20,000 nucleotides of DNA from an uncultured virus (IMG/VR IMGVR_UViG_3300031994_000077) (IMGVR_UViG_3300031994_000077); one strand, 5' to 3'. Counted from the first letter of the stretch, positions 1 through 20,000 are shown. Numbers and translations: made by a program. The notes: a model not told the origin generated them from the sequence alone.

Positions 1-768
1 AAGATTAAAGGCAATTTTAGGACGTGGAATTCACTAATTACACCACAACCTAATAAATATGCTGAAATCCTTATGCCACGCTATCCAATTAATAGAGCTA
101 CCAATTTTATTGTAGAAGAAGAATCTTGGACTGTGGTTGAATATGACCACACGAGCGTGCCAGGAGTTATTTATCTTTCACTAACTGAGGGCAAGATAAA
201 TAGCATTTATGATGACTTAAAGAACAATATTGCTGATACAGATAAATTAGCTAATTATAAAATTATAGTTCCAGCGGAAAAATAGAATTTTGCAATAGGG
301 CAGACTATTATTCCTTCTTTTACATTAACTAAAAATGGAATTCCAATAGATGCTGAAATAGAACTACTACCAACGGATAAGAAGGTTGCACGCATTATAG
401 ACGGCGCGCTTACCGCGGTAGGTAATGGAGAAACAAAGATAATGGTAAGATTAAAAGATTATCCATCTATCTTTGATTACATAGATGTTGTTATTGATAC
501 AGAACCCGAAGTCTTTTCTGCGTATATTGAAGGAAAAGATAGTATACGATTAGACCGCGAATCAGCGTATAAATTAATAGGTACTAATGATTTAGATGAT
601 GAAGTAGAATTTTCAATTGATACTACATTAGCTACAATTAAGAAAATAGACTCTACATCATGTTTAATTCATACGAATAATAAGAACTTATTAGGAAGTT
701 TTACATTAACAGCGACTTATAAAGGAACTTCATATACAAAAGAAATAAATGTAATACCATTATGGTGA
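1..768 (+). CDS. Virion neck / head-tail joining-type protein with C-terminal Ig-like domain(s); 5'-truncated; TAG read as Gln
   Basis: Frame 1 is open from base 1 (KIKGNFRTWNSLITPQPNKYAEILMPRY...) to TGA 766-768 with a single in-frame TAG (283-285). This joins track ORFs 73..285 and 442..768. The segment ELLPTDKKVARIIDGALTAVGNGETKIMVRL...IDVVI resembles a bacterial Ig-like (Big_2-type) repeat. The neck role is inferred from its position upstream of the tail genes. Confidence 0.7.
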
Positions 769-778
769 GGTGGGAAAA

Positions 779-1282
779 ATGGATTTAGAAATGACACAGC
801 GACGCTTCTCTGTAATGGGAATGAATACTTTTAGAATTGCGAATAAGTTAATGTAGAATTAGAGAATTTGCAGGCTATTAAAGTATCAGGTGCGCGACCC
901 CTTTAACAAAGAGAAATATCCTGATGTTGATGGGGCAGAATTAATTAATAAGTAGATATTAATTATTCCTAAAATTTATGATGACAGTACAGAAAAGATG
1001 TCATATATAACAGCTATTTTTGATGACTTTGTGGTAAATCAATTAAATCCAGAATTTAAAACATCAACAGTACGATTTGATATAGCATGTCCTTATGATG
1101 AATGGCTATTAGATGATCGTTCTTTACGGCCTTATTTAATAATGTAGGAAATAGATACAATGTTTAATGAGGGTAAATTAGCAGGAATAGGTACATTACA
1201 ATTTCATAGAGCAGATAATCTGACATTATCCCCTTGGATTGGTGGATATTCTATGAGGTATAAAATTAATGAATTTAACTGA
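779..1282 (+). CDS. Putative tail completion/terminator-type structural protein, 167 aa (TAG=Gln); absent from the ORF track
   Basis: RBS GAGGTG at 767-772, ATG 779, TGA 1280-1282. In-frame TAGs at 854, 860, 953 and 1145. Translation: MDLEMTQRRFSVMGMNTFRIANKLMQNQRICRLLKYQVRDPF...RFDIACPYDEWLLDDRSLRPYLIMQEIDTMFNEGKLAGIGTLQF...KINEFN. It fills the gap between neighbours exactly. Function is inferred from size and position only. Confidence 0.7.
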
Positions 1283-2042
1283 TGATGAGGTTCTGAAATT
1301 TTAGAAAGGAACTCCCATATTATTAGGAGATATATGTGCTATATATTCTGCTACTATTGGTGAAATAGTTGAAATAGGATATTCTAAGTTTCAAGCGTAT
1401 CTTGGAATTTTAACAGCTATGAAGCCTGATCCAAAAGATTGTAAGGACGCATAGCTGAAATAGGTTCTTGAAGAAATAACAGATTTTTAGTATATGTTAA
1501 TGATGACCGGTATTGATGATTCTGTTAATAAAATGACAAGAGAAGCTTTTAATTTTTTCATTCATGATGATGTGATTTTTTCATTAGACCCTGCGTAGAT
1601 TGTAGTTGGTCGGATAGAAGAAAAACACATAATGGATGAAGAGAAATTTTATGAATTTCAGAGAATTCTTCGTAGAATGTATTTCTTAGAGCAAGAAGGC
1701 GAAGAGATCGTAATTCATGAAAATGACCCTCCTGCTACTAAACGGTTGAAAATGCAAATGCGGCGAAACCGTGAAAGAGTGAGGAAAGCGAAAGCTAAGC
1801 AGGCCGCGCGAGAAAAAACTGATTTAAATTTTTCTGATTTGATCGGTAGCATTTGTATTAATAATTGCGGCCTAAATATGGAAAATATTTGGAATATTAC
1901 TTATTATGCTTTACAAGACTAGTTAAAACGCATGGGATGGAGAGATTAGTTTGATATAAACAACCGTGCGGCTTTGGCTGGTGCTAAACTAAATAAAAAA
2001 CAGTTGAAACATTGGATGCGTTCAATTGGCAATTTTGAATAA
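1269..2042 (+). CDS. Phage protein, 257 aa (TAG=Gln); possible tail assembly chaperone
   Basis: GAGG at 1255-1258, ATG 1269 (14-nt overlap with the upstream gene), TAA 2040-2042. Seven in-frame TAGs (1302, 1452, 1461, 1488, 1596, 1920, 1947). It contains track ORF 1632..1922. Helical C-terminus NIWNITYYALQDQLKRMGWRDQFDINNRAALAGAKLNKKQLKHWMRS. The chaperone role is inference. Confidence 0.7.
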
Positions 2043-2054
2043 TCATGATTTTAT

Positions 2055-2061
2055 AGGAGGT
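2055..2061 (+). promoter_or_regulatory. Strong Shine-Dalgarno (AGGAGGT) for the major tail protein
   Basis: AGGAGGT lies 7 nt upstream of ATG 2069. Confidence 0.85.
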
Positions 2062-2068
2062 AACTCAT

Positions 2069-3097
2069 ATGGGTGTTAATATTTTTGACAAATATGGCAT
2101 TAAAGAGGTTGCTAACGTATATTTTGAGGCCCTAGATGATGATCCAGCGGCTGGTGTATACAAGGGCGACATCGTGCTATTCCTAGATTCTTTAAAGACT
2201 TCTACCATTGAAACAACTGCTGAGAATACTGCTGCGCAGGGCGGCTGGGGCAATCCTAAGCTAGTTCAGTGGGACTATGGTAAGGAGATTAACATTACTC
2301 TAACAGATGCTCTAATGTCCTTAGAGTCTCTACGTTTCATGCTTGGTGGCGCTATTAAGAAGTCCACTGATGCCGGCAAGACTGTTTATGTCCATCATAC
2401 CGAAGAGGTTGTTGTTGACAGTGATGGTGACGTTCCAGCGCCTAAAGACCATTTAACTGGTGTGACTCTTTATCCCAAGGCTATTAAAGACCATCCAATT
2501 AAGCTAATTAATCTTGGCGGTGGCGTTGATGCACAAGGTAATGCTAGTTCAACTGCTGGTACTCGCACGCAGATTGTTGTAACTGATGAAGCGAATGCTA
2601 TGGTAGCTAAGAATACGATTAAGTTTAAGAATCCTAAAGCTGGTGTTACAACTCCAACCGCGCCTCTCCCTGGCGATCATATTCGTATTTTCTGGGACGA
2701 AGCTGTTAATGCGGAACATGCTACGGAATCCGCTGTTGAAGTAACTATTTCTCCTGATACCTTCCCTGGCACTTATAAGGTTGTTGGCGATACCTTTATG
2801 CGGTCTGAGAAGACTGGTAAGGATGAGCCATTCCAGTTTGTTATTAATAAAGCTAAAGTTCAGAGCAATGTTACAATCACTCTAGAGGCCGAAGGTGATC
2901 CTTCTACTTTTGAGATGACTCTAAACGTTCTCCGTTCTACTAATGATGAAGGTCAGAATGAAATGATGAAGCTAGTTCGTTATAATATCGCTGATTCCAG
3001 TTCTGCGGATGCTGGTAACGATCATGGCTCTTTAGCGGCCAGTTCTACCACCACCGTCGTAACTGAACAAGGCGAAGATACCGGCACTGGTAACTAA
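2069..3097 (+). CDS. Major tail (tube) protein, 342 aa
   Basis: Intact ORF under either code, ending in TAA. It has a consensus RBS, high-expression-type codon bias (GCT, GGT, AAG, ACT) and a terminator directly downstream. Beta-rich tube-like motifs: FLDSLKTSTIETTAENTAAQGGWGNPKLVQWDYGKEINITLTDAL and FPGTYKVVGDTFMRSEKTGKDEPFQFVINKAKVQSNVTITLEAEGDPSTFEMTL. It lies upstream of the tape measure gene. Confidence 0.85.
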   Translation: MGVNIFDKYGIKEVANVYFEALDDDPAAGVYKGDIVLFLDSLKTSTIETTAENTAAQGGWGNPKLVQWDYGKEINITLTDALMSLESLRFMLGGAIKKSTDAGKTVYVHHTEEVVVDSDGDVPAPKDHLTGVTLYPKAIKDHPIKLINLGGGVDAQGNASSTAGTRTQIVVTDEANAMVAKNTIKFKNPKAGVTTPTAPLPGDHIRIFWDEAVNAEHATESAVEVTISPDTFPGTYKVVGDTFMRSEKTGKDEPFQFVINKAKVQSNVTITLEAEGDPSTFEMTLNVLRSTNDEGQNEMMKLVRYNIADSSSADAGNDHGSLAASSTTTVVTEQGEDTGTGN

Positions 3098-3109
3098 TTT
3101 AATATAAAT

Positions 3110-3142
3110 AACAGGCTAGGATTTATTCCTAGCCTGTTTTTA
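3110..3142 (+). terminator. Rho-independent terminator after the major tail gene
   Basis: Inverted repeat AACAGGCTAGGA (3110-3121) / TCCTAGCCTGTT (3127-3138) with a 5-nt loop, running into a T-tract to 3142. Confidence 0.85.
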
Positions 3143-3159
3143 TTATTGAGGAATAACAT

Positions 3160-4038
3160 ATGATAGATCAATATTTTGGAGTGAAAGAACTCTATGAAGT
3201 TATTCTGCGCGCAAAGGTTCCAATGCGATTTGGGAGCCGTATGTTAGAAGCTGATGAACCTGTTCTGTATTTTGAACACGTAATGATGTCTTTGCTGAAA
3301 GAATCTAGTCAGCCAGTTATGGCGCGCGGCGGTTGGTCTAATCTTCCTAGGGTTATTTGGGAAGATCGTTCTGAAGTTGCTTTCTCTTTATCAGAAGGTG
3401 TTTTATCTTCTATTAGTTTAGGAATATTATTAAGTGCTAGTATGAGTACACCAGAAAAAGGTGAAAAATTATTAGTACCAAAAAGGGAAGGCCCTTTTGA
3501 ATTAAATGATTAGCATAGGTTATACTTAGAGCATTGGCCTGTGTCACATGAAAAAAAGAAAACTTTTATTTTTGAATATGATAGAGATGTGGCTCAAAAG
3601 AAAATATATGGAAAAAGAATATTAGGGTAGAAAGACCCGTTTGAGCCAGATAAAGATAGACCTTGTTTGGAATTGTATAAAGACAAGGCATTGAGTGAAT
3701 ACGCGGATATTGATAAGAAATATATAGTAGATTATTACTATGAGTATGGAGAAGACGCGCTAATATATACTATATAGAAAGAGCGTTTTAATGGATTATT
3801 CACCCTTGAAGGTAAGTTTTACTCCAAGGATGAAAACGAAGGCTTTAATTATACTAATTTAATTTATATGCCAAAAGTTAGAGTTGTGAGTAATATAAAC
3901 TTACGCTTGGGAGAAAGGGCTGATCCAACAATGTCCGTTTTTAATATAATTGGACTACCAGAGAATATGGGAGATAATCGTAAGGGTATGATTTTAGAAA
4001 TGACCCGCTTAAGTAGCGATATAGATGAAGAAATATAA
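3160..4038 (+). CDS. Second, diverged tail-tube-family protein (paralog of 2069-3097), 292 aa (TAG=Gln)
   Basis: GAGGA RBS, ATG 3160, TAA 4036-4038, in-frame TAGs at 3511, 3628 and 3775. It aligns by eye with the major tail protein at both ends: FGVKELYEVIL~YGIKEVANVYF; ARGGWSNLPRVIWEDRSEVAFSLSEGVLS~AQGGWGNPKLVQWDYGKEINITLTDALMS; FNGLFTLEGKFYSKDENEG...PKVRVVSNINLRLGERADPT~FPGTYKVVGDTFMRSEKTG...NKAKVQSNVTITLEAEGDPS. Confidence 0.85.
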
Positions 4039-4075
4039 GCCACTTCCTAAGTGTTAGGAAGTGGCGTCTTTTTTT
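4039..4075 (+). terminator. Rho-independent terminator between the tube paralog and the tape measure gene
   Basis: Perfect 12-bp stem GCCACTTCCTAA (4039-4050) / TTAGGAAGTGGC (4054-4065) with loop GTG, followed by GTC and T7. Confidence 0.8.
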
Positions 4076-4104: not shown

Positions 4105-7100
4105 GTGGCAAGTGAGATTGGTAGTTTTGTTGTAAGCTTAAAAGCTAAAATTGAAGGGTATCAGACAGAGCTAAAAAAAATGTAGGACGTAATGAATTAG
4201 ATTGGCGCTGATACCAAAATAGGCAAGAATCTTGCTAAGCAATTTAAAAGTGTTAGTAGCGACGTTGAAAAGCTAGAACAAAAAATCAATTAGAGGATTT
4301 CTTCTGAAAGTTAGATTGTTAGATTAAAAGACTAGTTAGACGGCGTAGATAATAAAATTAAGGATATTGGCGGAACATTATAGCAAGTACAATTTAAAGA
4401 TTTGGATACTACAAAATTTACCGCCAGCATCCAAGAAATGAGCACCAAATTGAAGGAATTAGAAGCTTAGCTTTCTAATAACATGGGAGGCAGTTTTAAT
4501 AAAATTATTCAAGGGTGGCTCGGAAAAAGTGATAATAAATTTGGTAATTTATTAGATAGATTAAAAATTGATCCAAAAGAATTAAATTATGAGAATTTTT
4601 CTCAAGTATTTACAAAAGCTATGGAAGATGCTCGCGCGCGAGCATAGGATTTAAAAAAAGAGATTGAAGGTCTAACAAAACAAAAAGAACAATATGATAG
4701 ATTAGCTTCAGAAGCAGAAAATCGTGCGAATTTTAATCCAACAGATGCGGTAAATCAATCTTTAGGTAAATTTGCTAATGTAAATGTAAAAGAATTATCT
4801 TAGGATAAAATCAAAGATTTTTAGGATAATTTAACAAAATTCTTTCAGGATATAAATTTAGAGCCAGATATTTTAGAAAAGAAAGTTTAGCCGTTAATTG
4901 ATAATTTAGTTAATTCTACAAGTAGCGGAGAATTTCAAAGAAAACTAGCACAATTTGAAGGAAATCTAGCAAAAAGTCTCGGTATGAATAAAACTAATAT
5001 TGATTAGCTTTTATAGAATACCTTAAATATAGATCCAAAATAGTTCTTTAATTTTGATAATTTTTTAGATACTAGTAAAATAAATGATTTTTCAACGGAA
5101 GTGTCTAATTTACTTAATAATTTAATGCCAGACAAAAGTTCTGATGAAATTAGTGCAACATATGAAACTGTTTTTAAAGCTTTTACTAATGGGAGTCCAG
5201 CAGAAGCTATTAAAGCAGTAACTACAGCATTATAGGAATATTAGAAGGAGCAACAAGCAGTAGCAACTTCAAATAGAAGTTCAAGCGAAGCAATTGGACA
5301 AACTATAAAGGATTTAACTTCAGAATAGAAACAAATTCCTAAAGATATTCAAAGCGGGAACGGCTATTTATCTGTTTTACAATCAAATTATAATTCATTG
5401 TTACAAAAATATGATGAATTAAAACAATAGGTTGAGGAACTACGTTCTTAGCTGAGAGATGCTGGAAAAAATGCAGAAGGTAATATTCATACCGCAGGAA
5501 CAAATATTTAGCAAAGTGGATAGAGTGGCCTTGCTGAAAATATTCGTTTAGCAAAGCAATATTCTCAAGAACTTGAATCTGTCAAAAATGCTGAATAGAT
5601 GGTTGGAAAAATTGAGGGCATTACTCAGCGCTGGTTTAGTGTATATGCAGCAGTAAGGATGGTTACTAATGCAATTAATTCAATGAAACAAACTATTGCT
5701 GAATTAGATAAAACCATTACTGAAATTGCTATTGTTACTGATATGTCTCAATCTGACTTGTGGGGTTAGATGGATACTTACACAAGTATGGCAAGAGAAT
5801 ATGCAGCATCTATTTCTGGCGTTTATAAAGTTTCACAATTATACTATCAGCAAGGTTTACAGACTGCCGATGTAATGGCATTAACTGAATCAACCTTAAA
5901 GATGGCGCGCATTTCTGGTTTGGATTATGCAGATGCGACTAACTATATGACAAACGCTGTCCGCTCTTTCAAGATGGAAATGTCGGAAGCAGATAAGGTT
6001 GTAGATGTATATTCCGCTATCGCGGCAAAGTCTGCTACTGATGTTAGCGAATTAGCAGTAGCTATGAGTAAGACAGCATCTTCTGCAGAAGCTGTTGGTT
6101 CTAGTTTCGAGAATACAACAGCTATGATGGCTGTTATGATTGAAGCTACTCGTGAATCTTCTCAGAATATTGGTAGTGCAATGAAATCCATAATTTCACG
6201 TTATGGTGAATTGAAAGAAAATCCCAGTAAGCTGGTAGATTCAGAAGGCGAGGAACTTAGTTTAAACAAAGTTGATACTGCCTTACAAAGCGTTGGTATT
6301 AGTATCCATAATGCACAAGGTCAATTCCGTGAATTTGATGATGTTATTATGGAGTTAGCAGAAGCATGGGATACTATTGATGTCAATACGTAGAGATATA
6401 TTGCAACTGTAATGGCTGGTAATAGACAGCAATCTCGATTCTTAGCACTAGTTGGTAGTGGAGAAAGATTAAAACAATTGGCGACTGAGGCTGCGGATGC
6501 GGAGAATGCTTCTCAATTACAGTTCTTAAAAACATTAGATAGTATTGGAGCTAAGTAGCAACAACTAGAAACAAGTTTATAGAGTTTATATACGAGTAGC
6601 GGATTAGAGCAGTTTTATAAGTGGATATTGGATGTTGGTAATGCAATAGTTACGCAGTTTAACAACATACCAAGATTATTTAATTTGCCGATTCCTGCTA
6701 TATTAAGTTTTGCGACTACTTTCTATTCATTAGCTGACGTTGTGACTAATGTATTCGGTATTATAATGAATAGAATGGCAGTACATAGATAGCAACTTGA
6801 AGCAAGTTTGTCTAATAGTGCGAATACTTAGGTATAGATTGAAGTAGATAAAAATAATTAGGTATTACGTGCTCAAGAAAACGCTCATGCAAAAGAAGAG
6901 CAAGAGCAAGAACGCCATGAAGAAACTATGGCAAAGATACGTGCTACCGGCGGGCGTATAAATGCATATGCCAATGGAAGACCTGCTGATTTTGTTCCAG
7001 GTGGAGAGAACAAATAGTATGGTAATGTAAAAACAGTTAATACTGCTTCATTAGGATTGAACTTGGCTAGTTTGGGGCTTGGAGCTATAGCGACTGGTTT

Positions 7101-10100
7101 AAAGGGTTCTAGTAATGAAGGAATGTAGAAGGTTGGTGGTATTACTGGAGCGTTTTCTCGTGCGGCGAGTGGCGCAGCATTAGGTTTTACTTTAGGCGGG
7201 GGCCCTCATGGAGCTGTTGTCGGCGCGGCAATTGGCGGTATAGTAGGCGCGTTTGAAAATCTTAATGCTATATTACCTTCTACTAAAGTTTAGATTGAGA
7301 ATTTAACTAAAGCGGCAACTGACGCTAATAATAAAGCATTACAAGAATAGGCAGAATCTAAGTCATTATAGTCTTCTATTGATAAAATAAAAGAATTAGA
7401 AAAAGCTAGATATAGTAGCGTTGAAGCAGAAGAGAAATATTTAGAGGCTAATGACGCGCTTGCAGCATCACATTCTGAATTAATTGCTCGTTATGATGAA
7501 ACAGGTAGAGCAATTATTGATTTATCTTCAGCTAATAATTTACTGCAAGAATCTTTATAGAATACCGCAGATGCTACTAGAGATGCAGCAATTGCTAATT
7601 ATCGAAAAACAGAAAAAGAAAAAGAAAGTAATACGGGTCCAGTTTTTACTTCTACGGCGGGAAAAACTTCAAATTTATTTACTGCTTTATAGGCACAAAG
7701 TAATCAAAAAGTACGCACAAAAGCCGCGACAATTGACTAGGACTCTGATAGTCTTTTATAGACTATTAAAAATGATACTATAAAAAATATTGCAAGAACT
7801 TTCTTAAAGGAAGACATTTCGACTAAAGAAGTTTGGGAAGGATTAAATAGCGCGCGAACATCAGCAAAAGAGATTGAAGGATTAACTGAATTTGATCAAG
7901 CTGTTTTAGATTATATTAATAATACTATGGATGCTTATGAAGTTCAAGTTACGAAATTTATTGCAAGTGATAATAAATTATCTAAAACGGGAAAAGCTGG
8001 TGCTCAAAATTATATTAATTCTCTTCTTAAAATAGAAACGTATTAGGATAAATTTTTTGAGGATGTTACAGACAGTAATGATATAATTGCAGCGATGTTA
8101 CTAAATCTTTTTAATGATTATAATGGTGATTATACTAAGTATATGAATGATATGCCAAGTAATTTAGAAAAGGTTTAGGAATAGTTAAAAAATGCAATTA
8201 ATACGATTGGTATAGATGAGTTTAATAAATTAATAGATTTAAGAAAAACTACAAGTGCGGAAGGCATAACTAGTTATATTAATGAAAAATTTTCTGGATT
8301 TGATGAAGCAGTTCGATAGGCTCTTTTAGATTATTTTACCAGCGTTTATAATATTAGTGATTTTACGAATAATATTGCTAGCTTTAATTCTAAAGGCATT
8401 CAAGATATTTTAAATGCGTTCTCAAAGTCTTTTTCTGATTTATCTGATACAGAATTATTAGCAATAAATGCTTAGGCGGAGTAGATTGACAAAAAGATTG
8501 CTACATCCGGATTAACAGAAAAATAGGGACAGGCCGCTTTAAATACTTATTTGAGTCTTTGGGCAAGTTTAGAGTCAAAGACAAATGGACTAGATTAGTC
8601 ATAGAGAGATGCCGCAGAAGGACTATTATAGGCTTGGGATGGAACTGCGCAAGGGTTAGAAGCTATAATAGATACAATTCCAGAAACTGAAAAGACAAGG
8701 GTGTTGTTAAACCAATTTAGAATATTAATTAATTAGCTTTCTAACAATTTAAATACAACCTTTAGTACCCTAGCTTCTTCTATCGCAGAAGGAATTAAAG
8801 ATTTTGATACGGCTATTGCTGATATGGCAAAAGGCGTATCTATGGATAAGGCAGTTGAGTATGCAGATAAATTTGGAGCAGATATAAGTAAATTTGAATT
8901 AGATTACTCAACTGGGTTGTTTAAATATGATGATTTAAATGTTTTACAATAGAAATATTTTGATAATTTAAATGAACAAATTACTAATGCGAATAGTTAT
9001 TTAGAAAAATATACTGATTCAAAAAATGCGGATGCTATAAATGACGCTTTAACAGCTTTAAAAAATTCTAAGGATGGCAAAATTGATAACTCTTTATTTG
9101 ATGCGATTAAAGGATTAAATAAGGAGGAGATTGAACCAGAATTAAAAGCTTATATAGAATACACCAAGACAGCAGGCGATAACGCATTAGAATTTTTTGA
9201 TTGGATTACTAATAAATATAAAGGTATTGCAGAAATATCTGGGCAAGCATTATAGAATGCTCAAGCACGCGGCGCCTTATAGTTGGGGGATTTAAATGGA
9301 TTCCTAAAATAGATGAACGTCGATGAGAGTAAATATAATGAAGTAATTTAGTCATTATTGTCTAATAATGGATTCAATTATGAAGATATTAAGAAGATCG
9401 CGGGTCAAACCGCCGCGGATGAGATGCAAAAATATGCTACTGCAATTAGTGAAGCTTTAGGAGATATTACTAAAAATTCAGTAGACGCTGCAATTTCGTC
9501 AATAACAAATGGTAAGGTTGAAAATATTCAAGTTAATCAAGCTAATGAGGATATATTAAGGAAACTCGGCGCGACCGGCGTAGACAGCGGGTCCGCTACT
9601 CTAGATTGGTCTGATACTGATATTAATAGTTATCAGGCTAGAGTTAACTAGATTCTCACTACTGGCTTATCTCCAAAAGATATGGATTCTGCGCTCAGTA
9701 GTCTTGAATCAGCAGTATATAATATAGATGTATCTGAAGCAATTAATTCTGTTATTAGCTCTTATGAAGGATTTGGTATTGAAGTCGCAAATACTTTTGC
9801 ATAGGCAACTGGCAAGTCATTATCCATGTTATAGTCGGCAGGAATTTTATCATTTAATAAATTAACTGGAAAATATAGTGCTAATATTGAAAAATTACGC
9901 ATATTTATTGCTAGGCAAGAGAATTTATCAAATAAAGATTAGAATGCAATGTTGGCTAATATAGATAAGCAAATACGTGAAACTAGCGGAATTTCTGTCT
10001 TTAATAATATAGCAAAAGATTATAATAATTTAACAGAAGAATCTATTCAATAGTTAGCAGATAAATTAGAACTTAGTTATGATACAATAAAAGATTCTCT

Positions 10101-13100
10101 AACACCAAATAATGATGGAACTTATAAAGTTGATTTAGCCAGATTACAACAATTATAGCAAAATTTAGGCGCGGCCGCGGATAATAATGCGAAAGAAACC
10201 ATTGCTTCTATAATAGATGACTATATTGCATAGCTTTCTAATATTAGTTCAATTTAGAATTCTGGATATACTAATTTAGGCGATATGCAAAAAATTGCTA
10301 ATGAAATTAATAATGGTAATTTAGACATTTTTGAATGGGATAATCAGTTAAAATCATATGTTTTAAATAGGCAAGGTATAATTTAGCAAGTTTTACATGC
10401 CACCAGTGAATTAAATTCATTGGATTCGGGAAGTCAAGAATATCAAAAAGCTGCACAGCTAATTAAAGTTAATGGGCAGTTATTAGCTGAAAATATTAAT
10501 TTTACTGATTTATTAAATAGTGTAGGTACTAGTGAATATGTAAAGAACGCTTTACAATTTATTGATGCAGTAGAAGATTATAACGCTTATCTTTTAGCTA
10601 CTGGTGAAACCACTTTATTAGATGCTGAAAATTTATTAAAGGCTGTTTCGGAAGGTGGAAAATCCGCCGTAGCAGCGGCGAAAGTAATTGCTTAGGCCAG
10701 CGGTAAATAGCTTACTGGTAAAGATATTGAAGATGCTTATAGATCAAGTGCAGTACAACTTAATACTGCTGTAGATCAACTTGAAACATCAGTCGGCGGA
10801 ATAATTGATAAAATTACTTATAATATTTTAACAGTTAATGGTCAAATAAATACTTAGAATTTTGAAGATCTTGGTGGCGGTAAATATCTTGTAAAAACAG
10901 CAATTGATCTTGTGGATGGATATGAACGTTTACTTTATAAAATGGCAGAAAATGGTACTTCTACATTAGAAGAAATTAATGCTTTAGAAGTAAAAATCCT
11001 CACTCAGGGAAAAAATAAAAGTATGGCCGCTGCAGATTCTTTAAGTGGAATAGCAGATATTAGTTATGATGCTCTTGGGAAAATTGCTCAAGAACTTGGC
11101 AAAGATGTATTTACATTAATTAATGAATTAGGACCTTCTATTGAAGACCTTGGCAATGGTAAAGCTAGAATAACTAATTTTGCTCATTTTGCCAATCTTA
11201 CTGGAATTGAAAAAGGCACAGAAGCATATACAGAGGCTTATATTTCTTATAATGATGCAATTATTAGCAGTTAGAATAAAACTAAAGAAGAATTACTTAA
11301 TACCGTTAAAAATATAAGTAGTGCAAAAGCGGGCGATCAAATTAATGTTGCAACTTTGACTGCTAATTTAGATAATGATATTGTTTATAGTTTAAACGAT
11401 GCATTAAGTAAATATGGGGCCAGAATAAAAAATGGTATATTACAATTAGGCGATAATGCTAATATTGTAGCCGTAACAAAAATTATTTAGGATGCTGCCG
11501 CTGCAACTGGAGAATTAGCTGAGCATGATATAGCAGAGATTTAGGATGCTATTGAGACCTTTCTAAATAATATAACTAATATAATTAAATAGGGTATTGC
11601 TGGTACATTAAATAATACTGGGAAATTAGATTTATAGCAATCTTTGAAATCTGCTTATGGCGTTGAATTAGGTGATTCAGATTTTACAAAAGGCGCAGAA
11701 GGATTTAAGTTAACTGAATAGGCAGCAATTAGAGTTTATAATACAATAAAATAGATTGATACATTATAGGGATAGTTAGTTTTAACTGAATTAAATAATT
11801 CTCTAAAAGAAAGCAATGAGAATTATAAAGGAATGGGCGATATAATGAATCGTATCGCTCAATTGAAGGAAAAAATTGATAATCCAAACGGTGTAAGTTC
11901 AGAAAGATTACAAGAATATAAAGAAGAACTAGCTGTCGCGCAAGAAATAGCTTAGGTAAGGGCAACAACTGATAGCTCAGATTCTTTTGCCTTTATGGAT
12001 AATAAATTACCTGGCGCAATGGAGAATCCACTAACCTATGCAGAAAACTGGGGTAAAGCTATTAACATTCTATAGAAATAGTCTTCTGGTACTAAGAAGG
12101 GCTTTATCGACGCTCGTGACTGGTATAATATTGCTAATGAGATGAATAATATTGCAAAAGTTAGCGGGCAATCAATAGATTTATTTGGTCATACATTAAG
12201 TGGAAAAATGAAAGATGCATCTGAACTTATATAGGCTGGTTTTAGCCATTTAAAGTCTATAGATGGCGGGAAGATGCAAGTAGATTTATCAGCAATGCTG
12301 AGCGGTATTGGTAGTGCTTTTGAAAAAGGAGCGATGGACTCTGAAGGTAGCATTACAAAAGGCATCCATGCTATGGCTAAGTCTTAGATGGACATGCTGG
12401 ATGGTCTTATTGCTGTTCTTGAAACCGTTGTTGCAATGCAAGATGCATTTTCTGGACTCGATGCGGGAAAAGACTAGAAGCTTGATTTTGATGAGCTGTT
12501 TGAAAATTTAATACCAACAGGTGATTTAAAAACTGCTGCAGAAAGATTATTAGACAAATTTCCTGACCTTAAAGACCCAAACAATCCATTAACACAAATT
12601 AAAATTAATGGTGAAACGTTGGCTAAATTGTTAGAAGACGCTAAAAATCAAGTTAAATTTTCAGAAGAAAATGCTAGGGGACTAGCAGCAGCGATAAGCG
12701 CTTTATATCAGGCTATGCTTTCTGGTAATTATGATTTAGACAATATTTATGATAGTGTAAAATAGGTATTATAGCAATCTGGCTTAATTAATGGAAAATT
12801 ATCAATTGATGTTGGTACAACAACCTTATATCTTACTGGTAATGTTATTACTTAGATAGACTGGGGTTCAGATAAAGTTAAAGAAGCCATTAAAAAAGCT
12901 TTTGGAGAAGAGAATAATGCAGATGGTAAGACACCAGAAGAGCAAGCTAGAGAAGTTATGGATGACTTTTCTAAAAATCCGTAGTAGCTGCTAAAAGAGG
13001 CCGATGCCAATAAGTTAAAATTTATTTTATCTGTTAGTTCAGAAGTCACCATTGATGAAAAAACTGGGGAATATATTGTTGATGGACATCGTTTTACAGA

Positions 13101-16100
13101 CGAAAAAGAAGCTTATTAGGCATTATTATTAAAGAAAGCTTCTAAAAATGCGGAACTTACTTTTACTAAAGATGAAAATGGCAAAGAAAAATTAACTGGC
13201 GCTGTAATTAAAGGTACGGAAAATGCTCAGGTTGAAATGACCATTGATTCAGATGGTAATATTTGGTATGTATATAAAGGTGAAAATGGAGTAGGCAAAG
13301 CTAAAACACCTCAAGAAGCTATTAGAAATTATTTTAGAAATCATCAAGATGAATGGGGAGACAGTTTAACTTTAGATGACGTAGTTCATAAGAAATCAGT
13401 TGAATTCAATATAGATGCTTCTACGGGCATTACTTTTGGTGGAAAAGATAAAGAAGGTAATAAGACAGATAAGCCTACTTTAGCATAGTCTAAAATGGCG
13501 TAGGAATTACTTAATAACCCCAATATATAGACATATGAATAGTTAAGAAAATATTCCGAAGAAAATCCAGAATTAGGACTTGAAGTAGATACTACATTAA
13601 AAGGACCGTTATCTGTTGCTGACATGCAAAAAATTGCTGAAATATATGGTGTTGACTATAAAATGGAATCTAAATAGTTATCTCTTTCGGTTTCATTAGC
13701 AGAAGGCACCTCAGCAACGTTATAGAATCTTTTAACTGGTGAAAATGCTACCGCCACTCTTGAAATTACCCCCACTATTGTTGGTTCCACTACTTCCGGA
13801 GAAGGCACTGAAAACGGTCTTCAGCTAGGAGAGTAGCTAATAAATGCGCCAATAAGAATCAATCCAACCGATGTTCAGTTAAATGGCAATACTTTCTTAT
13901 ATGATAAAGCCTTGACTGTATATGCAGCAATATCTAACTTAAAGCTATTACCAGGAGAAGGTGGAACTACTGCGGTTGAAGGCGGAACTGGGAATCCATT
14001 ATCTGAGCAGGCAAAAGCGTAGTTACAATAGATAGTAGATACTATTTGGAGCGATGAGAGTATAAATACCGTAAAAGCACTTCAAGCAACAGCTTATCTT
14101 GGAGAAATTCTCTTTGCAACAAATGAGGCAACTGTAAATACTCCACCGAAAATAGTTGTACCACAAGACTGGATTGGAGAAAAAAGTCTTTTAAAGGTAG
14201 ACAAGATTTTAACATTCTTATATGATCTAGAATATAAACCCACAGAAGCGGCAAAAGCTGAAACTATATAGGTAGATACACCTGGCCCATTAGAAACGAT
14301 AGACATAGAACAGCCATATCGTATTGTGTTCGTTCCAGAAGGTGAAGGTGGTGAGAACGAGCCTCAACAACCCGCTGGGCTTTCAATGGGTGCTGAATAG
14401 ATTCAAGGTGGAATTATCGCTGGTAATTCTGATTATTCCGACTATTTAACTTCTATGTCGCAATACTTATAGAAAGGCGGCACGCTTAGCCAAGCAGGAG
14501 CTAATAGCATAAGTTAGATTGCTAACGCGACAAGAGATAATGCAGGAACCCAAGAATTCTATGAGCAATTCTTTGGAGAAAATGGGTTATTTAATATTGA
14601 TGATAATGGTAATATCTCGGCTATGACTACTTAGTTATAGGACATGGGTGAAGCGCTGAGTGATGGTGAACTTATTAGTAACATGTAGAATTTAAGTACA
14701 TTAGTACTTGAAGTTAATTCTACGGATTCAAATGGGCTAGCTGCACTTTGGACAGTACTAACAGAGTTAAAAGACGCTGCAAGTGTCTTTATGGAAGGGC
14801 CTTGGAAAGATGTTACTAGTGTATTAAATGATTTAAGCTCATTAAATATTGAAGCCAAGACCTTAACTATTGATACGGTTCTAACTGGTGAAACTTGGGC
14901 GTTAGAGTTACTTAAAGATTTATCTAATTCTACAATGAATTTTAATTTAAATCTTGGTGGTACTACAACTACGACAACGCCAACACCAGGGCTTCCAGGG
15001 CAAAATCCCGATATGACGCAATTCCCACAAACTGGCGGTATGCAAGGTACATATGCTGCGGCTTATGCTGGAGTAGGAGTAGGAGTAGGAGTAGGAGGCC
15101 AATATGGTGCTACACCATATGGTAATATGGCAAGTGCTACTCCTGCAACGCCACCCACTCAAGAGCAGCCAGAACTTGATACTGATAAAATGGAAGAAGG
15201 CATCGAAGAGACTAATGAACAAATAAACGCAATGGCCGAAGCAAGTGCTAAGGTGGCAGAAGGAGCAGGTGAGTTTGCGTCACAAACCGAAGCCGTAGCA
15301 GGAGCTATGGAAGAAGCAGATAGTACTATAATAACTCTTCAAGCGGGTGTTTCTACTTTCGCTACTAATGCTGGGACTGGTGCTGCGAATGCAGAAGCTG
15401 CTGCACAAGCTTTAATAAAAATACCAAAGAAAATTCCTATTAAAGCAGAAGTTGATTTATCTGTTAAGGCGGATATGACCGGTGGTGTTGCTCCGGCAAA
15501 AGGTGGGGCGTTAAGCGTAGAAGTTCGTGATGTAAGATTGGAGCAGTCAGAATTTGTCTTATCAGAAGCCAAAGGCACCAATCTTGCCTTACCAAAAGGC
15601 AATGCTCAAACTCTTATGGGCGAACTTGGCCCTGAACTTTATGTCACTAACGGTAGATATTATGTTGCTGGACAAAATGGCCCTGAGTTTGTTGATTTAC
15701 CAAAAGATGCTATCGTATTTAATCATGTAAAAACAAGATAGCTCTTAAAGAACGGAAAAACTAGCGGGCATGGTAAGCCAGTTACAAATGAAAAGAATGC
15801 CATCTCATTCGCTACTGGTACTCCTGGTGGCCCCGCTATGGCGAGTGCAAGTGCGGCCCTCGCCGCATTAAAGCAACTGCGTGCGATGTGGGCTTCACTA
15901 CTTAAATCCAGCGCCAAAGACTTAGGCTCTTAGGCCGGTCGTGGTGGCGGAGGCGGAGGCGATGATGCCGGTAAGTACGTACAGCCAACCACTACTACCG
16001 CGGATATTCAACGTTGGTATAACTGGCTACGCTAGATTGATAAGATTGAAAAAGATATTACTTATCAAGAGAAGCTACAAAAGAAGTATGAAACCGATAG

Positions 16101-18858
16101 AGTAGCAAATGGTTAGAAAATCTTTGATACTTAGAAAGAGCGCTTAAAATTATTAGACCAAGAAATATTAAGGAATGAGCGTTTAGCTGATTTACAAAAG
16201 AGTTGGTATGATAATAAGAGAAAAGAGCTAGAAGAATCTTCCTATGGTAAAATTTTCACTTATGATGAAAATGGTTTACAACAATATGTTGGTTCTGGTA
16301 AACCTGGCTCTGGGCTTGGTCTTGATATATTAGAGCATCTTACTAAGAGAGACGTGCGCGGCGAAGCCATTGGAGATGCCGCGACTTCCAAGGCGCAGTT
16401 AAAATATTTAGCAAGCGTTGGCTTTAACTTAAATGACTTAATTTACAACGACGATGGCACAAAAGTTGTAAAGAAAATTAACTAGAAAACATTAGGCTTA
16501 ACTCGTATGCCTGATGATGAAGATACTGATGCTAGTGAGCTTTACACTAAGTTAATGGAAAACTTCTGGTCTAGGGTCGATGGCTGGCGCGATGAATTAG
16601 ATAGCCTATATGACAGTTATCAGCAACAGTTAGCTAAAATTGAAGATAATCAGACTAAACAGAATTAGATTATAGAAGGATTTGTAAAGAATGAGTTAAG
16701 TGTTGAAAAAGAATTGCTGAAAGCTGTTGAAGCGCGCGAGCAGGCTGTTATTGACAAACTACAAGAGCAGAAGGATGCGCTAGAAAAAGCTAATGCGAAC
16801 TATATCAAAGGCATATAGAAAGCGCTAGAAAAAGAGCGTCAGATTGAGCAGAAGAATGACGAGCAAGAAAATTTAACTAAGTTACAACGTCAACTTAGCA
16901 TTCTACAACGCTCAGGTGGCGGCGCCGCGCAGATAAAGCAACTTCAAGACCAAATTGCTCAGTCTTAGAAAGATATGTATTTTAATGACAGATAGGAAGA
17001 GATAAATGCTGTACAAGAAGCCTCTGATAAGTAGCTTGAAAAACTTGACCAGCAAATTCAGATTCTTACTGAAACATTAGAATATCAGAAAAAGAATGGG
17101 CTACTTTGGAATCAGGTGCGCGAGATTATGGAAGGTGGCGATGAATTCGCTACTGCTTTCTATGATAAATGGGTTACTTCTAAATCTGGTGAGTCTGCCT
17201 TAAATATGGAAGAAGATTTACGAAGCTTCAAAGAATTATTCCAAGAGTGGGTTGGTTTCAGAGAAAGTAAAGAAGAAGATAGACTTGCTAAGGAAGATAT
17301 GGAGTCTATTGCTAATTCTGAAAAATATGGAGAATCTAATGCTAATTATTTAGAAGGATTCGCAGATGATAAAGAACGAAGTGCCGCGCAAAAAGCTGCG
17401 GAAGACGCTGCTAATGCTGCGCGTGATAATTACTTAAAGAGCCATGAAGATGAGGATGAAGCAAGCCGTGAAGCTAATGCACGGGCGGCCGCGGAAAAAG
17501 CTTATCATGAATCTTTACAAAGTAGTTATATGAGTACTACTGGTAATAAAGAAGCGAATCAATAGTTCGCTGAAAATTATGGAAGCTGGTTAGAGAATAG
17601 GCGTATTTCCGATGCTAATGATTTTACTAATACCGAAACATTTAAATAGAATGAAAGTGTATTTAAAAATGCTATGCAGGCTTACTACTTGGAGCATAGA
17701 AATGATGAAGGAGTAAGTGAACAAGAGCTTTGGCAAAACGCTATTAATGCTGGCTAGTAGGCTCTTAAAGAAGATATTGAAGAGAATTATTAGGAAGCCT
17801 CGGAAAATAGCGCATAGGTTATTGGCGGAAAAGCCGTCAGCTATACTTATGATTCCGTAAAAGGAAAAATGAAAAAGAATAGCAAGATTACTTATGGTGA
17901 AGGAACATCATTAAGCTTTGAAGAAGCAAAAGAAGTCCCCGAAGGAAAGAAACTTAAACATTATTTACGTGTTGCAGGCACTGGTAATTGGGTACTTGCT
18001 AATGGCATTTATACAGGTGAAAGAATTTATAGTCAGTTAGCTGGAAATCAGGCTTGGTAGAGTTGGAATGGAAATCTTGCTGGCGCGATAAATGGCATGA
18101 ATGGTTATTATGGAGCTAATGGATTAACTAATACTGTTGACATATCGGATTTAAAGAGTGGCAATTTAAAGTTCCCTGGAACTTAGATTCCATTAGAGAA
18201 TGGCGGCTTTGCTACTCTTGGTAAGAATGGCAATACGGTTAGAATTTCTGATTTTAGCAGTATAACATTTGATAAAAAGAATCCTGACAAGAAGATTAGT
18301 AAGCTTGGAAAAAATATGACTATTACGGCTATTTAGACCCCTGACATGAGTAAGATGGAAAATCTTTAGAATCCAATAACTATAAAAACTAATGGTACTA
18401 TAAAGAAAAAATTAAATGATTTATTAGCTGCTGACAGTGGTAGCTTAAAGAATCTATTACAATACTTGGGCAATTATGATATTAATGAAATCAGACGCTA
18501 TGCGGCTGGTGGCATGAATTATTACACTGGTCCCGCGTGGTTGGATGGTTCTAAGACAAGGCCAGAAGCTGTACTTAATTCTTCCCAGACTTCTTTCTTA
18601 CGTAATGACTTATTAGGTAATTCTAAGGATTCATTAAAATCCATAGTTTATTCCTTACAAGATAGTATTCGTGGCGCGGCCATAGGCAGCAGTTCTACAA
18701 CTAATAATGATGGTATGGTAATTGAAAATATAGATGTTACCTTCTCTCCTGGCGTAATTAGTAATGATTACGATATGCGGCAAGCGAGTGAGGTATTCAA
18801 GAACGAAATTGTTAAGATAGCTAGAAAATCTGGCAGTAGAAGTGTTTCAAGGAGGTAA
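4105..18858 (+). CDS. Giant tail tape measure protein, ~4,917 aa (TAG=Gln)
   Basis: AAGGAG at 4088-4093 and GTG 4105, directly after an in-frame TAA. Reading frame 1 codon by codon I found no TAA/TGA until 18856-18858, but about 125 TAGs. All frame-1 track ORFs from 5770 to 18858 are pieces of this gene. TP901-type TMP core at ~5650-6560 (ELDKTITEIAIVTDMSQSDLWGQM...VDVYSAIAAKSATDVSELAVAMSKTASSA...TQRYIATVMAGNRQQSRFLAL). Hydrophobic/Gly-rich segments at ~6670-6770 and ~7045-7260, long coiled coils, and a TMP-type C-terminal motif YAAGGMNYYTGPAWLDGSKTRPEAVLN. Confidence 0.93.
15070..15097 (+). repeat. Hexamer tandem repeat (GGAGTA)x4 + GGAG encoding (Gly-Val)4 within the tape measure gene
   Basis: Read directly: ggagtaggagtaggagtaggagtaggag. 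The unit length preserves the reading frame. Confidence 0.9.
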
Positions 18859-18859
18859 A

Positions 18860-20000
18860 ATGATTATGGCAACTTTAACAGGCCAAGAAGAACTTAGTAA
18901 CACTCCTAAAAGAACACAAACTTTTCAAGCAACGCATGATGGGGCAGGCAACAGCCTGCCCCTCTACCTGCGTTCTTTTTTAAGTTTTTCTTATGGAGGA
19001 AAAGCAATAGAGGAATTTTCATTAATAGTTACTTATGATGAAAGAATTGAAAAAGGAATTTATTCAGAATTTGAAGATGCGACTAGTGATTATACGACTG
19101 TTGACGGGCAGTATTATTGGGGCACTAGGATGGAACCGTTAGAATTAGAATTTACATTATCTACTGATTATATGGATTAGAAGACGATGGAAGATTTTAA
19201 AGCTTGGTTCAGACCTGGTGTCGAACGCGCGCTGATTTTATCAGAGCATCCTAATAGGTATATAATGGCTCGTGTTTCAGAACCGCCAGAAATGGATATG
19301 ACTCCTTTTGGAGAAGAAGTTGATGTAGAGATAAATGGGAAAACTTATAAGACAATGACTACTATATATAGGGGAGACATAACATTAAATTTTGTTATGG
19401 ATTATCCATATTGGACTGGAATATTAAATTATATGCCGTATTTAATTACTGGAAATAATGAAACAAATAATGAATAGGCTTCTACTTTATTAGAATAGTT
19501 AAAATCTGCTGAAAGTATAAATACTTTGTCTAGTAAAGACGCATTAAAAATATGCTTAGAAGATAATATCCCTCATGGTTTAGGATTGTATAGTAAAGAT
19601 AGTGCTTTTATATTAGGTAATAAAGATTTATATACAGGTAAAATAACGTTATCACGGGTACCAGGAGTAGTAAAAGCCGGCGTATCAGAAGAGACCGCAA
19701 AAGATACCGACTATATACGAACTGATGCGAATGCGCCGGAAAGTGCGTGGCCCTATGTCAATAGTTCTTATATACAATATATTCCAACTGATGGTACTGC
19801 GATAACAGATATTTCTTCAACGCCAAGTGCAGGCGACAACAATCCTACTGCTCCATTTGTAGTTAATTATAACGTTAATTCAATTCCAATGGACTTATCA
19901 CAAGGCGAGACGAAATATTTATTTTATAGCGGCACCGCGCCCTCAAAGCCCTTTATATCTTTTAAATTACAATTTACTTTTGATGATAATGGGTACATAA
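18860..20000 (+). CDS. Distal tail (Dit-like / baseplate hub) protein; 3'-truncated (TAG=Gln)
   Basis: AGGAGG at 18850-18855 overlaps the end of the TMP gene; start is ATG 18860 or 18866. Frame 2 is open to the window end with TAGs at 19178, 19475 and 19496, joining track ORFs 18842..19180 and 19187..19477. SFSYGGKAIEEFSLIV...VDGQYYWGTRMEPLELEFTLSTDYMDQKTMEDFKAWFRPGVERALILSEHPNRYIMARV resembles siphophage Dit N-terminal domains, and the gene is in the canonical position after the TMP. Confidence 0.8.

Follow-up and report, generated by a model that had tools for sequence, protein, structure and literature searches.

The reading of TAG as glutamine rather than stop is already established in the literature for phages, the same phenomenon having been described in a preprint by Borges et al. 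(10.1101/2021.08.26.457843) and in the report on Phass-1 (PMC10607447). In the code 15 phages of Borges et al., as presented in the available text of the preprint, TAG aligns with Gln and is concentrated in structural or late genes, the genomes are low in G+C and have close standard-code relatives, the hosts are of Firmicutes type, and suppressor tRNAs occur, with no phage tRNA synthetase. The same text describes the Agate phages, in which recoded and standard-code genomes occur inside one clade, the reassigned codon being TGA and some pairs exceeding 90% nucleotide identity (10.1101/2021.08.26.457843). Phass-1 (OQ749652) is reported as a TAG-to-Gln phage with a large siphovirus-type genome, a predicted Bacillota host, a tRNA array, Pol III alpha, NrdG and dUTPase (PMC10607447).

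The window analysed here, a stretch of 20,000 nucleotides within an 80,180-bp contig (IMGVR_UViG_3300031994_000077), represents the tail module of a siphovirus-like, so far uncultivated gut phage that joins the known code 15 gut phages. It resembles the phages of Borges et al. in each of the above respects (35% G+C; suppressor tRNA here in relatives) and differs in that several replication and recombination genes contain TAG, the suppressor is absent from this contig, and the phage could not be assigned to any of the clades named in the text of that preprint. Recoded and standard-code genomes occur together as in the Agate phages, whereas the codon here is TAG and the genomes share ~70% protein identity. 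The likeness to Phass-1 extends to the features listed above (the tRNA array here predicted from relatives), but Phass-1 is distant; membership of Phassvirus, the genus proposed for it, was considered and rejected, since a megablast search of 50,697 phage records gave no match and TerL identity is only 32%. Our explanation as a whole, with a probability of roughly 0.87, is that a siphovirus-like phage, probably of ~170-180 kb and with a probable Bacillota host, translates UAG as glutamine, as judged from sequence comparisons.

Gene content and reading frames of the tail module

With TAG treated as sense, the window contains seven genes on the + strand, carrying 1, 4, 7, 0, 3, 125 and 3 in-frame TAG codons (143 in total), and a recount thus reproduced exactly the approximate hand count of an earlier, sequence-only reading. 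The 3' part of a 405-aa virion-module gene (1..768; start upstream at contig position 42622; TAG at 283), which matches only PHROG families without an assigned function, is followed by a 170-aa virion structural protein gene (770..1282; phrog_6123, E 5.8e-22; TAG at 854, 860, 953 and 1145) and a conserved 257-aa gene of unknown function (1269..2042; phrog_4051, E 3.7e-40; 7 TAG) with 28 relatives in IMG/VR. Next come a TAG-free 342-aa gene (2069..3097; phrog_2729 'virion structural protein', E 9.9e-51) and a paralogue-like gene of 292 aa (3160..4038; phrog_2729, E 1.8e-16; 3 TAG), then the 4917-codon tape measure protein gene (4105..18858; 125 TAG and no internal TAA or TGA) and the 5' part of a Dit-like gene (18860..20000; phrog_202 Dit, E 2.2e-7; 3 TAG in the window), which extends to contig position 63643 and scores 21.8 bits against PF05709, under the cut-off of 24.2. 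The six visible gene ends are, in order, TGA, TGA, TAA, TAA, TAA and TAA, and none is TAG, as had been claimed. The ribosome-binding sites and terminators proposed near these ends were also recovered: AGGAGG or GAGG-type motifs lie upstream of the starts at 1269, 2069, 3160, 4105 and 18860 (AGGAGG ahead of the ATG of the Dit-like gene), and the window's two strongest intrinsic-terminator-like hairpins, each with a 12-bp stem and a T run on the + strand, follow the genes ending at 3097 (3110..3138) and 4038 (4039..4065). The tandem in-frame TAG-TAG pairs at 12982..12987 and 17755..17760, both on the + strand, are the only two in the window, and the TAGs pointed out at 6391 and 6556 are likewise present.

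The frame at 4105..18858 contains no TAA or TGA, while 200 mononucleotide shuffles of this 14.7-kb frame gave on average 186 TAA and 109 TGA and never fewer than 253 of the two together, bearing out the claim that such a frame is beyond chance. Its 4917 codons compare with longest TAA/TGA-free runs of 110-414 codons in the other five window frames. Coding density, calculated from greedy non-overlapping ORFs over the whole contig, rises from 0.635 with the standard code (code 11; 134 ORFs averaging 127 aa) to 0.904 with TAG as sense (90 ORFs averaging 271 aa), compared with 0.674 for a TGA-sense and 0.815 for a TAA-sense control. This was the comparison that the sequence-only reading had proposed, and its prediction that standard annotation would shred the genes holds, the 4917-aa product being cut at 125 places. 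In the 20-kb tail regions of three recoded relatives, coverage rises from 0.36-0.51 to 0.90-0.93 when TAG is sense, whereas in those of four standard-code relatives it is already 0.83-0.92 under code 11. The pattern of in-frame TAG is common to 12 relatives. TAG thus sits inside conserved, selected frames, and genes end in TAA or TGA only.

The amino acid encoded by TAG

TAG occupies positions at which standard-code relatives have CAA or CAG. For the five small genes of the window, 13 of 28 relatives contain no TAG, and against these the 15 small-gene TAG sites show a Gln share of 0.65 and a Ser share of 0.02; where conservation reaches at least 80% (10 sites), the residue is Gln at nine and Glu at one. 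Opposite the TAG at 953, the codon in relatives is CAA in 20, TAG in five and CAG in two. In the tape measure gene, a standard-code relative could be aligned at 110 of the 125 TAG sites, with Gln at 21%, Lys at 11%, Glu at 9% and Ser at 5%, and at sites where at least three relatives agree the residue is always Gln (6/6). The Gln share at TAG sites of this gene (0.21) is lower than at CAA (0.32) or CAG (0.41), indicating weaker conservation at TAG than at genuine Gln codons, and some TAG sites align with Glu, Lys or other residues. A BLOSUM-based decoding test over the 125 sites gave per-site scores of 1.05 for Gln, 0.48 for Glu, 0.19 for Lys and 0.02 for Ser, and in the control all 52 of 52 sense codons were decoded correctly; TAG also decodes as Gln in 12 of 12 recoded relatives. 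Gln is therefore the best-supported reading of TAG, as proposed from the sequence alone, with four independent lines in agreement: coding density, the codons of standard-code relatives, the controlled decoding test, and CAG>TAG swaps between strains. The expected enrichment of Gln in homologue columns opposite TAG was likewise found, Gln being the commonest residue in the alignments.

Distribution of TAG along the contig

The earlier reading had placed the recoding across the tail module, where it is indeed found, but it is not confined there. TAG occurs in 16 of 20 late-block ORFs, making up 37% of their Gln-type codons, and in 23 of the 69 other ORFs of the contig, making up 19%; late or structural enrichment is thus present, not exclusive. 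TAG is dense in a sigma-factor-like gene and in the terminase, portal and tail genes, and absent from the coding strand of a block of small early-type genes, a distribution which, following the published model for recoded phages, would tie late expression to the suppressor, the TAG-rich sigma-factor-like, terminase, portal and tail proteins being made only once it is present. However, TAG also occurs in a helicase gene (6), a RuvC-like gene (13) and a GIY-YIG gene (8), and the late-gene model is not clean. In a few small, doubtful ORFs, TAG lies 3-23 codons ahead of TAA or TGA, and the real end could be TAG.

Structural genes for the most abundant products may avoid TAG. In 12 recoded genomes, the gene corresponding to 2069..3097 has TAG at just one of 81 Gln-type codons, the others being CAG (73) and CAA (7). 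By its position and codon use, its product is probably the major tail (tube) protein; the AlphaFold model was of poor quality and its fold not readable.

The tape measure protein

The 4917-aa product is a tape measure protein. It contains a PF10145 domain (phage minor tail/tape measure core; residues 562-768, encoded at 5788..6408 on the + strand; E 5.4e-29; 101.9 bits, the cut-off being 33.2), within which the TAG at 6391 falls, and matches five PHROG tape measure families. The gene lies between what we infer to be tail tube/chaperone genes upstream and the Dit-like gene, which begins 2 bases past its stop. In standard-code relatives the tape measure is encoded by single ORFs of 3870-5160 aa with 0-1 TAG, and metagenomes contain over 1000 relatives, 2.7-6.9 thousand residues in length. 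No sequence match to PDB chains was found, nor any additional Pfam domain; the P23-45 protein, by comparison, includes an RNA polymerase part. The gene is among the longest tail-measuring genes known from any virus. Tail length per tape measure residue is ~0.15 nm, which for 4917 residues would predict a tail of roughly 0.7 micrometre. In giant size the protein resembles the tape measures of Thermus phages P23-45 (5002 residues) and P74-26, the latter with a tail reported at nearly 1 micrometre (PMC10770324, PMC10034513), but the phage described here probably infects an anaerobe of the gut rather than a thermophile.

The phage, its host and its relatives

The PF10145 tape measure protein, the Dit-like gene downstream and the lack of any sheath family among the 66 proteins scanned agree with the siphovirus-like assignment suggested earlier, and a full genome size of about 170-180 kb is likely. 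A Bacillota bacterium is the probable host, in line with the Firmicutes-type host suggested by the sequence-only reading: the terminase matches 129 phage records, all with Bacillota-type hosts where a host is named, and for the capsid-like protein a single match, at 76%, lies in a MAG labelled Acutalibacteraceae. Relatives at ~70% protein identity use the standard code, with TAG as the stop codon of 9 of their 74 ORFs; the relative most similar to the window, at 72% identity, is itself a standard-code phage. A tree of 23 genomes requires at least two changes of coding state.

The candidate suppressor tRNA

A search of this contig, ~46% complete by CheckV estimate, returned no tRNA of any kind (none by Aragorn; 0 matches to RF00005 at E<=10), no release factor, no Glu/Gln-tRNA synthetase and no other aminoacyl-tRNA synthetase, so that the tRNA-Gln(CUA), Gln-tRNA synthetase and release factor that the earlier reading had proposed to look for in the rest of the genome were not recovered, and the decoding device is therefore approached through relatives. 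All four near-complete recoded relatives (4/4) carry a tRNA(CUA), relatives also carry tRNA-Gln(UUG), and an RF-1 domain or Glu/Gln-tRNA synthetase domain was found in 0 of 5. Judging from these genomes, a phage-encoded tRNA with anticodon CUA would decode UAG, charged with Gln by a host enzyme and competing with host release factor 1; its gene would belong to a tRNA array in the half of the genome that this contig lacks.

The body of the tRNA(CUA) is nearest to phage tRNA-Trp(CCA), with 47/72 to 56/74 identity outside one insertion of 16-25 nt. Among 45 aligned, all have a class-II-like variable region of 19-25 nt and 33 have G73; the 1:72 pair is weak. Elsewhere, a long variable arm characterizes Ser, Leu and Tyr tRNAs, and the putative Gln charging is therefore deduced from protein conservation. 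The E. coli amber suppressor su+7 is a tRNA-Trp mutated to anticodon CUA, and is glutaminylated. The relatives' tRNA(CUA) is like su+7 in its Trp-like body, weak 1:72 pair and G73, with TAG behaving as Gln, but differs in that the variable region measures 19-25 nt instead of forming a short loop; its presumed Gln charging is read from the TAG sites. At least 44 distinct versions of the long-arm tRNA(CUA) occur in IMG/VR phages, and a search of 401 bacterial genomes from the candidate host order found none; a description of such a Trp-like, long-arm molecule was not found in the literature. Phass-1 encodes a long-arm tRNA(CUA) of the same design (L085, complement of 442-532, 91 nt). It also has two further tRNA(CUA), one of them 75 nt long and with a variable region of ordinary short length, neither found in the relatives of this clade. 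A more tentative proposal, with the odds somewhat against it, is that this clade and Phass-1 decode UAG as Gln by an undescribed tRNA-Trp-derived tRNA(CUA) whose acquired 19-25-nt arm is functional, with one such tRNA on the missing half of the window phage's genome. The arm might prevent recognition by TrpRS, promote charging with Gln (through GlnRS, or through Glu plus GatCAB), or protect the tRNA against tRNA-cutting defences.

Alternative explanations

That the TAGs reflect pseudogene decay, or sequencing or assembly artefacts, is refuted by a 4917-codon frame free of TAA and TGA, when none of the 200 shuffles had fewer than 253, and by the same pattern in 12 relatives. The window is covered at 90-99% identity by contigs from four runs in three other studies. 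Of the first 40 of 987 listed strain differences, 32 lie at third codon positions, and 33 are synonymous if TAG is Gln, among them two CAG>TAG swaps, at 797 (all four runs) and 1800 (one run). Because these independent assemblies keep the frames intact, assembly errors are unlikely. A host that itself reads TAG as Gln, with the phage following its code, is very improbable: relatives ~70% identical use the standard code and end 9 of 74 ORFs with TAG, TAG is avoided on the coding strand in one part of the contig, and we know of no bacterium in which TAG is Gln. Code-matching phages are known, namely the code 25 phages of Absconditabacteria, but TAG-to-Gln phages are reported on standard-code hosts (10.1101/2021.08.26.457843).

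The form of the tRNA(CUA) would fit decoding of TAG as a different residue, with the 19-25-nt variable region in 45/45 suggesting Ser, Leu or Tyr, the Trp-like body suggesting Trp, and G73 (33/45) being the discriminator of Ser and Trp tRNAs as well. Protein alignments make this improbable: the decoding test gives Gln 1.05 against 0.02 for Ser per site with a fully correct control, the Ser share at small-gene sites is 0.02, and whereas real Ser, Leu and Tyr codons recover their residues at 23-45% in the tape measure alignment, TAG recovers Ser at only 5% and Leu at 6%. Trp appears at just one conserved site each in two of 13 genomes, and near-identical strains swap CAG>TAG. Equally improbable is that Gln is inserted with no dedicated suppressor, by a host or phage near-cognate tRNA-Gln(CUG/UUG) aided by a phage factor that blocks or outcompetes release factor 1. 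The contig without tRNA, the tRNA-Gln(UUG) of relatives and the detection of TAG suppressors in only 40% of TAG-recoded genomes (10.1101/2021.08.26.457843) are compatible with it, but the tRNA(CUA) in all four near-complete recoded relatives, the lack of release-factor-related genes in the five searched, and the very efficient readthrough demanded by 125 TAGs in one gene, two tandems included, favour a phage-encoded suppressor.

Implications

Because code 11 fragments such genomes, failure to read TAG as Gln leaves these phages mis-annotated or overlooked. The size of the tape measure family suggests that phages with tails of record-holder length may be widespread in anaerobic communities of the gut. 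With its recoded and standard-code genomes matched at ~70% protein identity, the clade offers a natural system for how and why phages switch code, and the Trp-like, long-arm suppressor provides a concrete molecule for the question of which host enzyme charges phage suppressors.

Reading frames of the window

Under the standard bacterial code the ORFs of the window are short, the longest reaching 342 aa, whereas with TAG as a sense codon seven plus-strand genes stand in a row. The genes at 1..768 (one in-frame TAG) and 770..1282 (four) end in TGA, and the next four end in TAA: 1269..2042, encoding 257 aa (seven TAGs), 2069..3097 (none), 3160..4038 (three) and the tape measure gene 4105..18858 (125). 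The last gene, from 18860 onward, has three TAGs, and its end lies outside the window. These counts, and the use of TGA or TAA alone at the six visible gene ends, agree with the sequence-only reading of this DNA, and its further details were recovered as well: in-frame TAGTAG at 12982 and 17755, TAG sites at 6391 and 6556, Shine-Dalgarno-like motifs preceding the gene starts, and strong hairpin terminators 3' of 3097 and 4038.

The in-frame TAGs could in principle have arisen by chance, by gene decay, or as errors of one assembly. Chance and gene decay are excluded because the 4917-codon frame of the tape measure gene contains no TAA and no TGA, while 200 shuffles of this frame always gave at least 253 of the two together; in the other five frames the longest run free of TAA and TGA is 414 codons. 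Assembly error is ruled out by independent assemblies in which the frames are kept: contigs 90-99% identical to the window come from public runs of three further studies, which the search tool labels animal gut metagenomes. Among the first 40 of 987 strain differences, 32 fall at third codon positions and 33 are synonymous if TAG encodes Gln, so the frames are under purifying selection across their TAGs. The same 40 include two CAG>TAG swaps, one at 797 that all four runs share and one at 1800 seen in a single run; CAG and TAG are thus interchanged between strains. The stop-codon observation is therefore real and fully confirmed. In the contig comparison, a low-complexity stretch at 15060-15104 (a Thr run and Gly-Val repeats) was passed over as a repeat, and strains in other samples share the middle of the tape measure gene (about 9.3-15.3 kb) less than any other part. 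None of the 24 runs listed was an RNA dataset.

The amino acid encoded by TAG

A search with the 257-aa product of 1269..2042 found 28 relatives in IMG/VR at 53-82% identity, several of which are complete, at 167-184 kb, and have terminal repeats. In 13 relatives the homologues of the window's five small genes, upstream of the tape measure gene, lack any TAG, and in 12 they are as TAG-rich as in the window. The standard-code relatives provide a reference independent of any assumed code, and at the window's 15 small-gene TAG sites they show a Gln share of 0.65 and a Ser share of 0.02; of the ten sites conserved at 80% or more, nine have Gln and one has Glu. The tape measure is a single ORF of 3870-5160 aa with 0-1 TAG in four standard-code relatives, and an ORF of 4347-5516 aa with 124-160 TAGs in three recoded ones. 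A standard-code relative could be aligned at 110 of the 125 TAG sites in the window's tape measure gene, where Gln is the commonest residue (21%), followed by Lys (11%), Glu (9%), Leu (6%) and Ser (5%); wherever three or more relatives agree, the residue is Gln (6/6).

In a BLOSUM62 decoding test of the 125 sites, Gln scored best (1.05 per site, against 0.48 for Glu, 0.19 for Lys and 0.02 for Ser), and the same test was correct for all 52 sense codons represented by at least 15 sites. All 12 recoded relatives likewise decode as Gln. The Gln share is lower at TAG sites (0.21) than at CAA (0.32) or CAG (0.41), and several TAG sites align with Glu, Lys or other residues. Taken together, the enrichment of Gln opposite TAG in homologous columns supports the earlier proposal that TAG is read as Gln in this phage. 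Recoding of TAG to Gln is already known in phages, and the present phage adds one case.

The record and its probable host

The IMG/VR record is a single contig of 80,180 bp, classed as linear, with a CheckV completeness of 46%; the window corresponds to its bases 43072-63071. Greedy ORFs cover 0.635 of the contig under code 11 and 0.904 with TAG as sense, against 0.674 and 0.815 in the TGA-sense and TAA-sense controls. Besides the PF10145 tape measure and a Dit-like protein in the window, the contig encodes a sigma-factor-like protein, terminase large subunit, portal, RuvC-like resolvase, DEAD helicase, dUTPase, an anaerobic NrdD with an NrdG-like partner, a Pol III alpha fragment and a PRPP-synthetase-like protein. 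This gene content suggests a tailed phage of virulent type, large in genome, that infects an anaerobe. Integrase families are absent among the Pfam matches of its proteins, and the contig yielded neither a sheath protein nor a release factor or aminoacyl-tRNA synthetase. NrdD (74623-77490 of the contig, outside the window) is interrupted: a GIY-YIG endonuclease ORF separates its two ORFs, suggesting an intron or a homing-endonuclease insertion.

The window had no megablast match among 50,697 phage records. With the terminase as tblastn query, 129 matches were obtained in phages that are cultured or annotated, including Geobacillus virus E3 (37%), the recoded Phage Phass-1 (32%), and phages of Alicyclobacillus, Brevibacillus, Enterococcus, Bacillus and Lactococcus. 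Wherever these matched phages name a host it belongs to Bacillota, in line with the Firmicutes-type host that had been suggested. The capsid-like protein, compared with 185,579 species genomes, matched once, at 76% identity, within a MAG titled Acutalibacteraceae; the hint is weak, as the 47-kb contig concerned may be of phage origin and have entered the MAG by binning. Though indirect, this evidence is consistent, and the host probably belongs to Bacillota.

Genes that use and genes that avoid TAG

In the late block (contig 32.6-69.8 kb plus 0.2-6 kb), 16 of 20 ORFs contain TAG, which makes up 37% of Gln-type codons, compared with 23 of 69 other ORFs, some small and doubtful, and 19% of Gln-type codons elsewhere. 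A contig block at about 14.7-32.5 kb, outside the window, consists mostly of small minus-strand genes and is almost free of TAG, with 28-41 TAGs per 4 kb on its coding strand vs 48-79 elsewhere; several of its ORF calls seem spurious. First in the late block is the sigma-factor-like gene (contig 32632-34200, outside the window), which carries 11 in-frame TAGs, so that late transcription itself may depend on TAG suppression. Recoding had been described as running across the tail module; this is too narrow, as TAG also occurs in the helicase gene (6), the GIY-YIG gene (8) and the RuvC-like resolvase gene (contig 70185-70928, outside the window), whose 13 TAGs in 247 codons, with no CAG, are the highest TAG density on the contig. 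Because replication and recombination genes also carry TAG, a strictly late-only picture is too simple.

TAG is avoided within the late block by four genes at contig 39.7-42.4 kb and by window gene 2069..3097. One of the four is the probable capsid gene, judged by position and size; its PHROG has no assigned function. In homologues of 2069..3097 from 12 recoded genomes (loci L007-L032), TAG accounts for one of 81 Gln-type codons, with 73 CAG and seven CAA, while neighbouring genes have TAG shares of 0.40-0.62. Gene 2069..3097 has a higher G+C content and a strong terminator 3' of it, and we infer that it encodes the major tail protein; high expression of such a gene would select against a codon that competes with termination. 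An AlphaFold model of its product, from a 15-sequence alignment, had a mean pLDDT of 46 and left the conserved core unmodelled.

Probable suppressor tRNAs of the relatives

A search of the contig, about 46% complete, for a suppressor tRNA, release factor or tRNA synthetase found none, and the contig carries no tRNA gene at all. In the relatives, arrays of 10-30 tRNA genes lie at least 80 kb from the tail module, so an array is expected on the missing half of this genome. A tRNA with anticodon CUA is present in all four near-complete recoded relatives (L064:8569-8658, L066:2469-2558, L068:503-588 and L063:7710-7978, the last with a 177-nt intron after the anticodon). Neither an RF-1 domain nor the core of a Glu/Gln-tRNA synthetase is encoded by any of five relatives examined; the tRNA(CUA) must therefore be charged by a host enzyme, as also supposed for phage suppressors in 10.1101/2021.08.26.457843 and PMC10607447.

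These tRNAs have normal acceptor (7 bp), T (5 bp) and D (4 bp) stems together with a variable-region stem-loop of 19-25 nt, an extra arm that rests on aragorn and single-sequence folds. Phass-1 has the same long-arm design (91 nt; L085:442-532, minus strand), plus a further tRNA(CUA) of 75 nt whose variable region is short, as in ordinary tRNAs. A strict pattern of anticodon arm and extra-arm loop matched 70 IMG/VR stretches (L086-L155), in 68 of which aragorn called a tRNA(CUA), giving 44 distinct sequences of 85-95 nt; the pattern had no match in 401 bacterial genomes of the candidate host order. The coding density of the 2.5-kb flanks of these 70 loci did not discriminate a recoded source, since TGA-sense also raised cover and flanks of control arrays from standard-code relatives behave alike. 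In an alignment of 45 sequences, the acceptor, anticodon and T stems covary, with double changes at 15 of 16 pairs; RNAalifold recovered these three stems and missed the D and variable arms, where the alignment is poor. Base pair 1:72 is never G-C: it is C-G in seven of the 45 and U-A, A-U, G-U or mismatched in the other 38. The discriminator base is G in 33 of the 45.

Full-length comparison with other tRNAs is ambiguous; once the variable region is excluded, tRNA-Trp(CCA) is the closest match among phage tRNAs (identity 47/72 to 56/74 outside a single insertion of 16-25 nt). A blastn search of phages with a relative's tRNA(CUA) gave two partial matches only, both to Aeromonas phage tRNA-Trp. 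The classical suppressor su+7 is a tRNA-Trp with anticodon CUA that is charged with Gln. The relatives' tRNA(CUA) resembles su+7 in its Trp-like body and anticodon, and Gln charging of the su+7 kind would make TAG a Gln codon. In the part of the literature that was searched, no paper links a long variable arm or loop to recoded-phage suppressors.

The relatives show further tRNA features. A tRNA with anticodon UAU (reading AUA) and a long variable arm (88-90 nt) occurs in one recoded and one standard-code relative (L066:11121-11208 and L074:4014-4103). Many array tRNAs bear introns (L063:6477-7288, L063:7710-7978, L064:5759-6034 and others), including an 812-nt tRNA-Leu(UAA) gene with a 726-nt intron; another tRNA-Leu(UAA) has a group I intron match (RF00028). 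A full-length ROOL RNA (RF03087, 323 bits) lies within the array of a recoded relative (L064:7062-7636).

The tape measure family

The tape measure gene occupies 74% of the window, and PF10145 at residues 562-768 is its sole Pfam domain above threshold. Four slices of the protein searched against Pfam at E up to 0.5 gave only sub-threshold matches of glycine-zipper type, and the whole protein had no match among PDB sequences. A tape measure corresponds to about 0.15 nm of tail length per residue, at which the tail of this phage would be roughly 0.7 micrometre long. A search with residues 520-900, restricted to targets of 2704-8605 aa, scored 1544 proteins, 1182 of which reached E<=1e-5; the 120 of these that are listed (P0001-P0120) span 2957-6942 aa, and none of them carries a name. 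One of them, P0001, is a tape measure of 4865 aa with 99% identity to that of the window, encoded on a longer contig of 123 kb. The Thermus phages that hold the reported record have a tape measure of 5002 residues (P23-45) and a tail of nearly 1 micrometre (P74-26) (PMC10770324, PMC10034513), and the longest listed relative, at 6942 aa, exceeds the P23-45 protein. Given so large a family of giant tape measures, very long-tailed siphoviruses seem to be common in these communities.

Evolution of the coding state

When 23 genomes are placed on a tree built from four concatenated genes, coding state requires at least two changes and shows strong clustering, matched by no more than 1 of 500 shuffles. 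The most similar relative of the window (72% identity) uses the standard code, and in standard-code relatives TAG terminates nine of 74 ORFs. Repeated, recent code changes within phage clades are described in 10.1101/2021.08.26.457843, and the mixed coding states around this phage match the pattern reported there. One relative with unrecoded genes (no TAG in the five small genes, one in the tape measure frame) carries a 77-nt AT-rich tRNA(CUA) (L073:18793-18869, minus strand), which may be a suppressor gained before recoding, an order of events put forward in a published model. What this phage and its relatives add to the known recoding is a clade of mixed code, a family of giant tape measures and an unusual suppressor tRNA.
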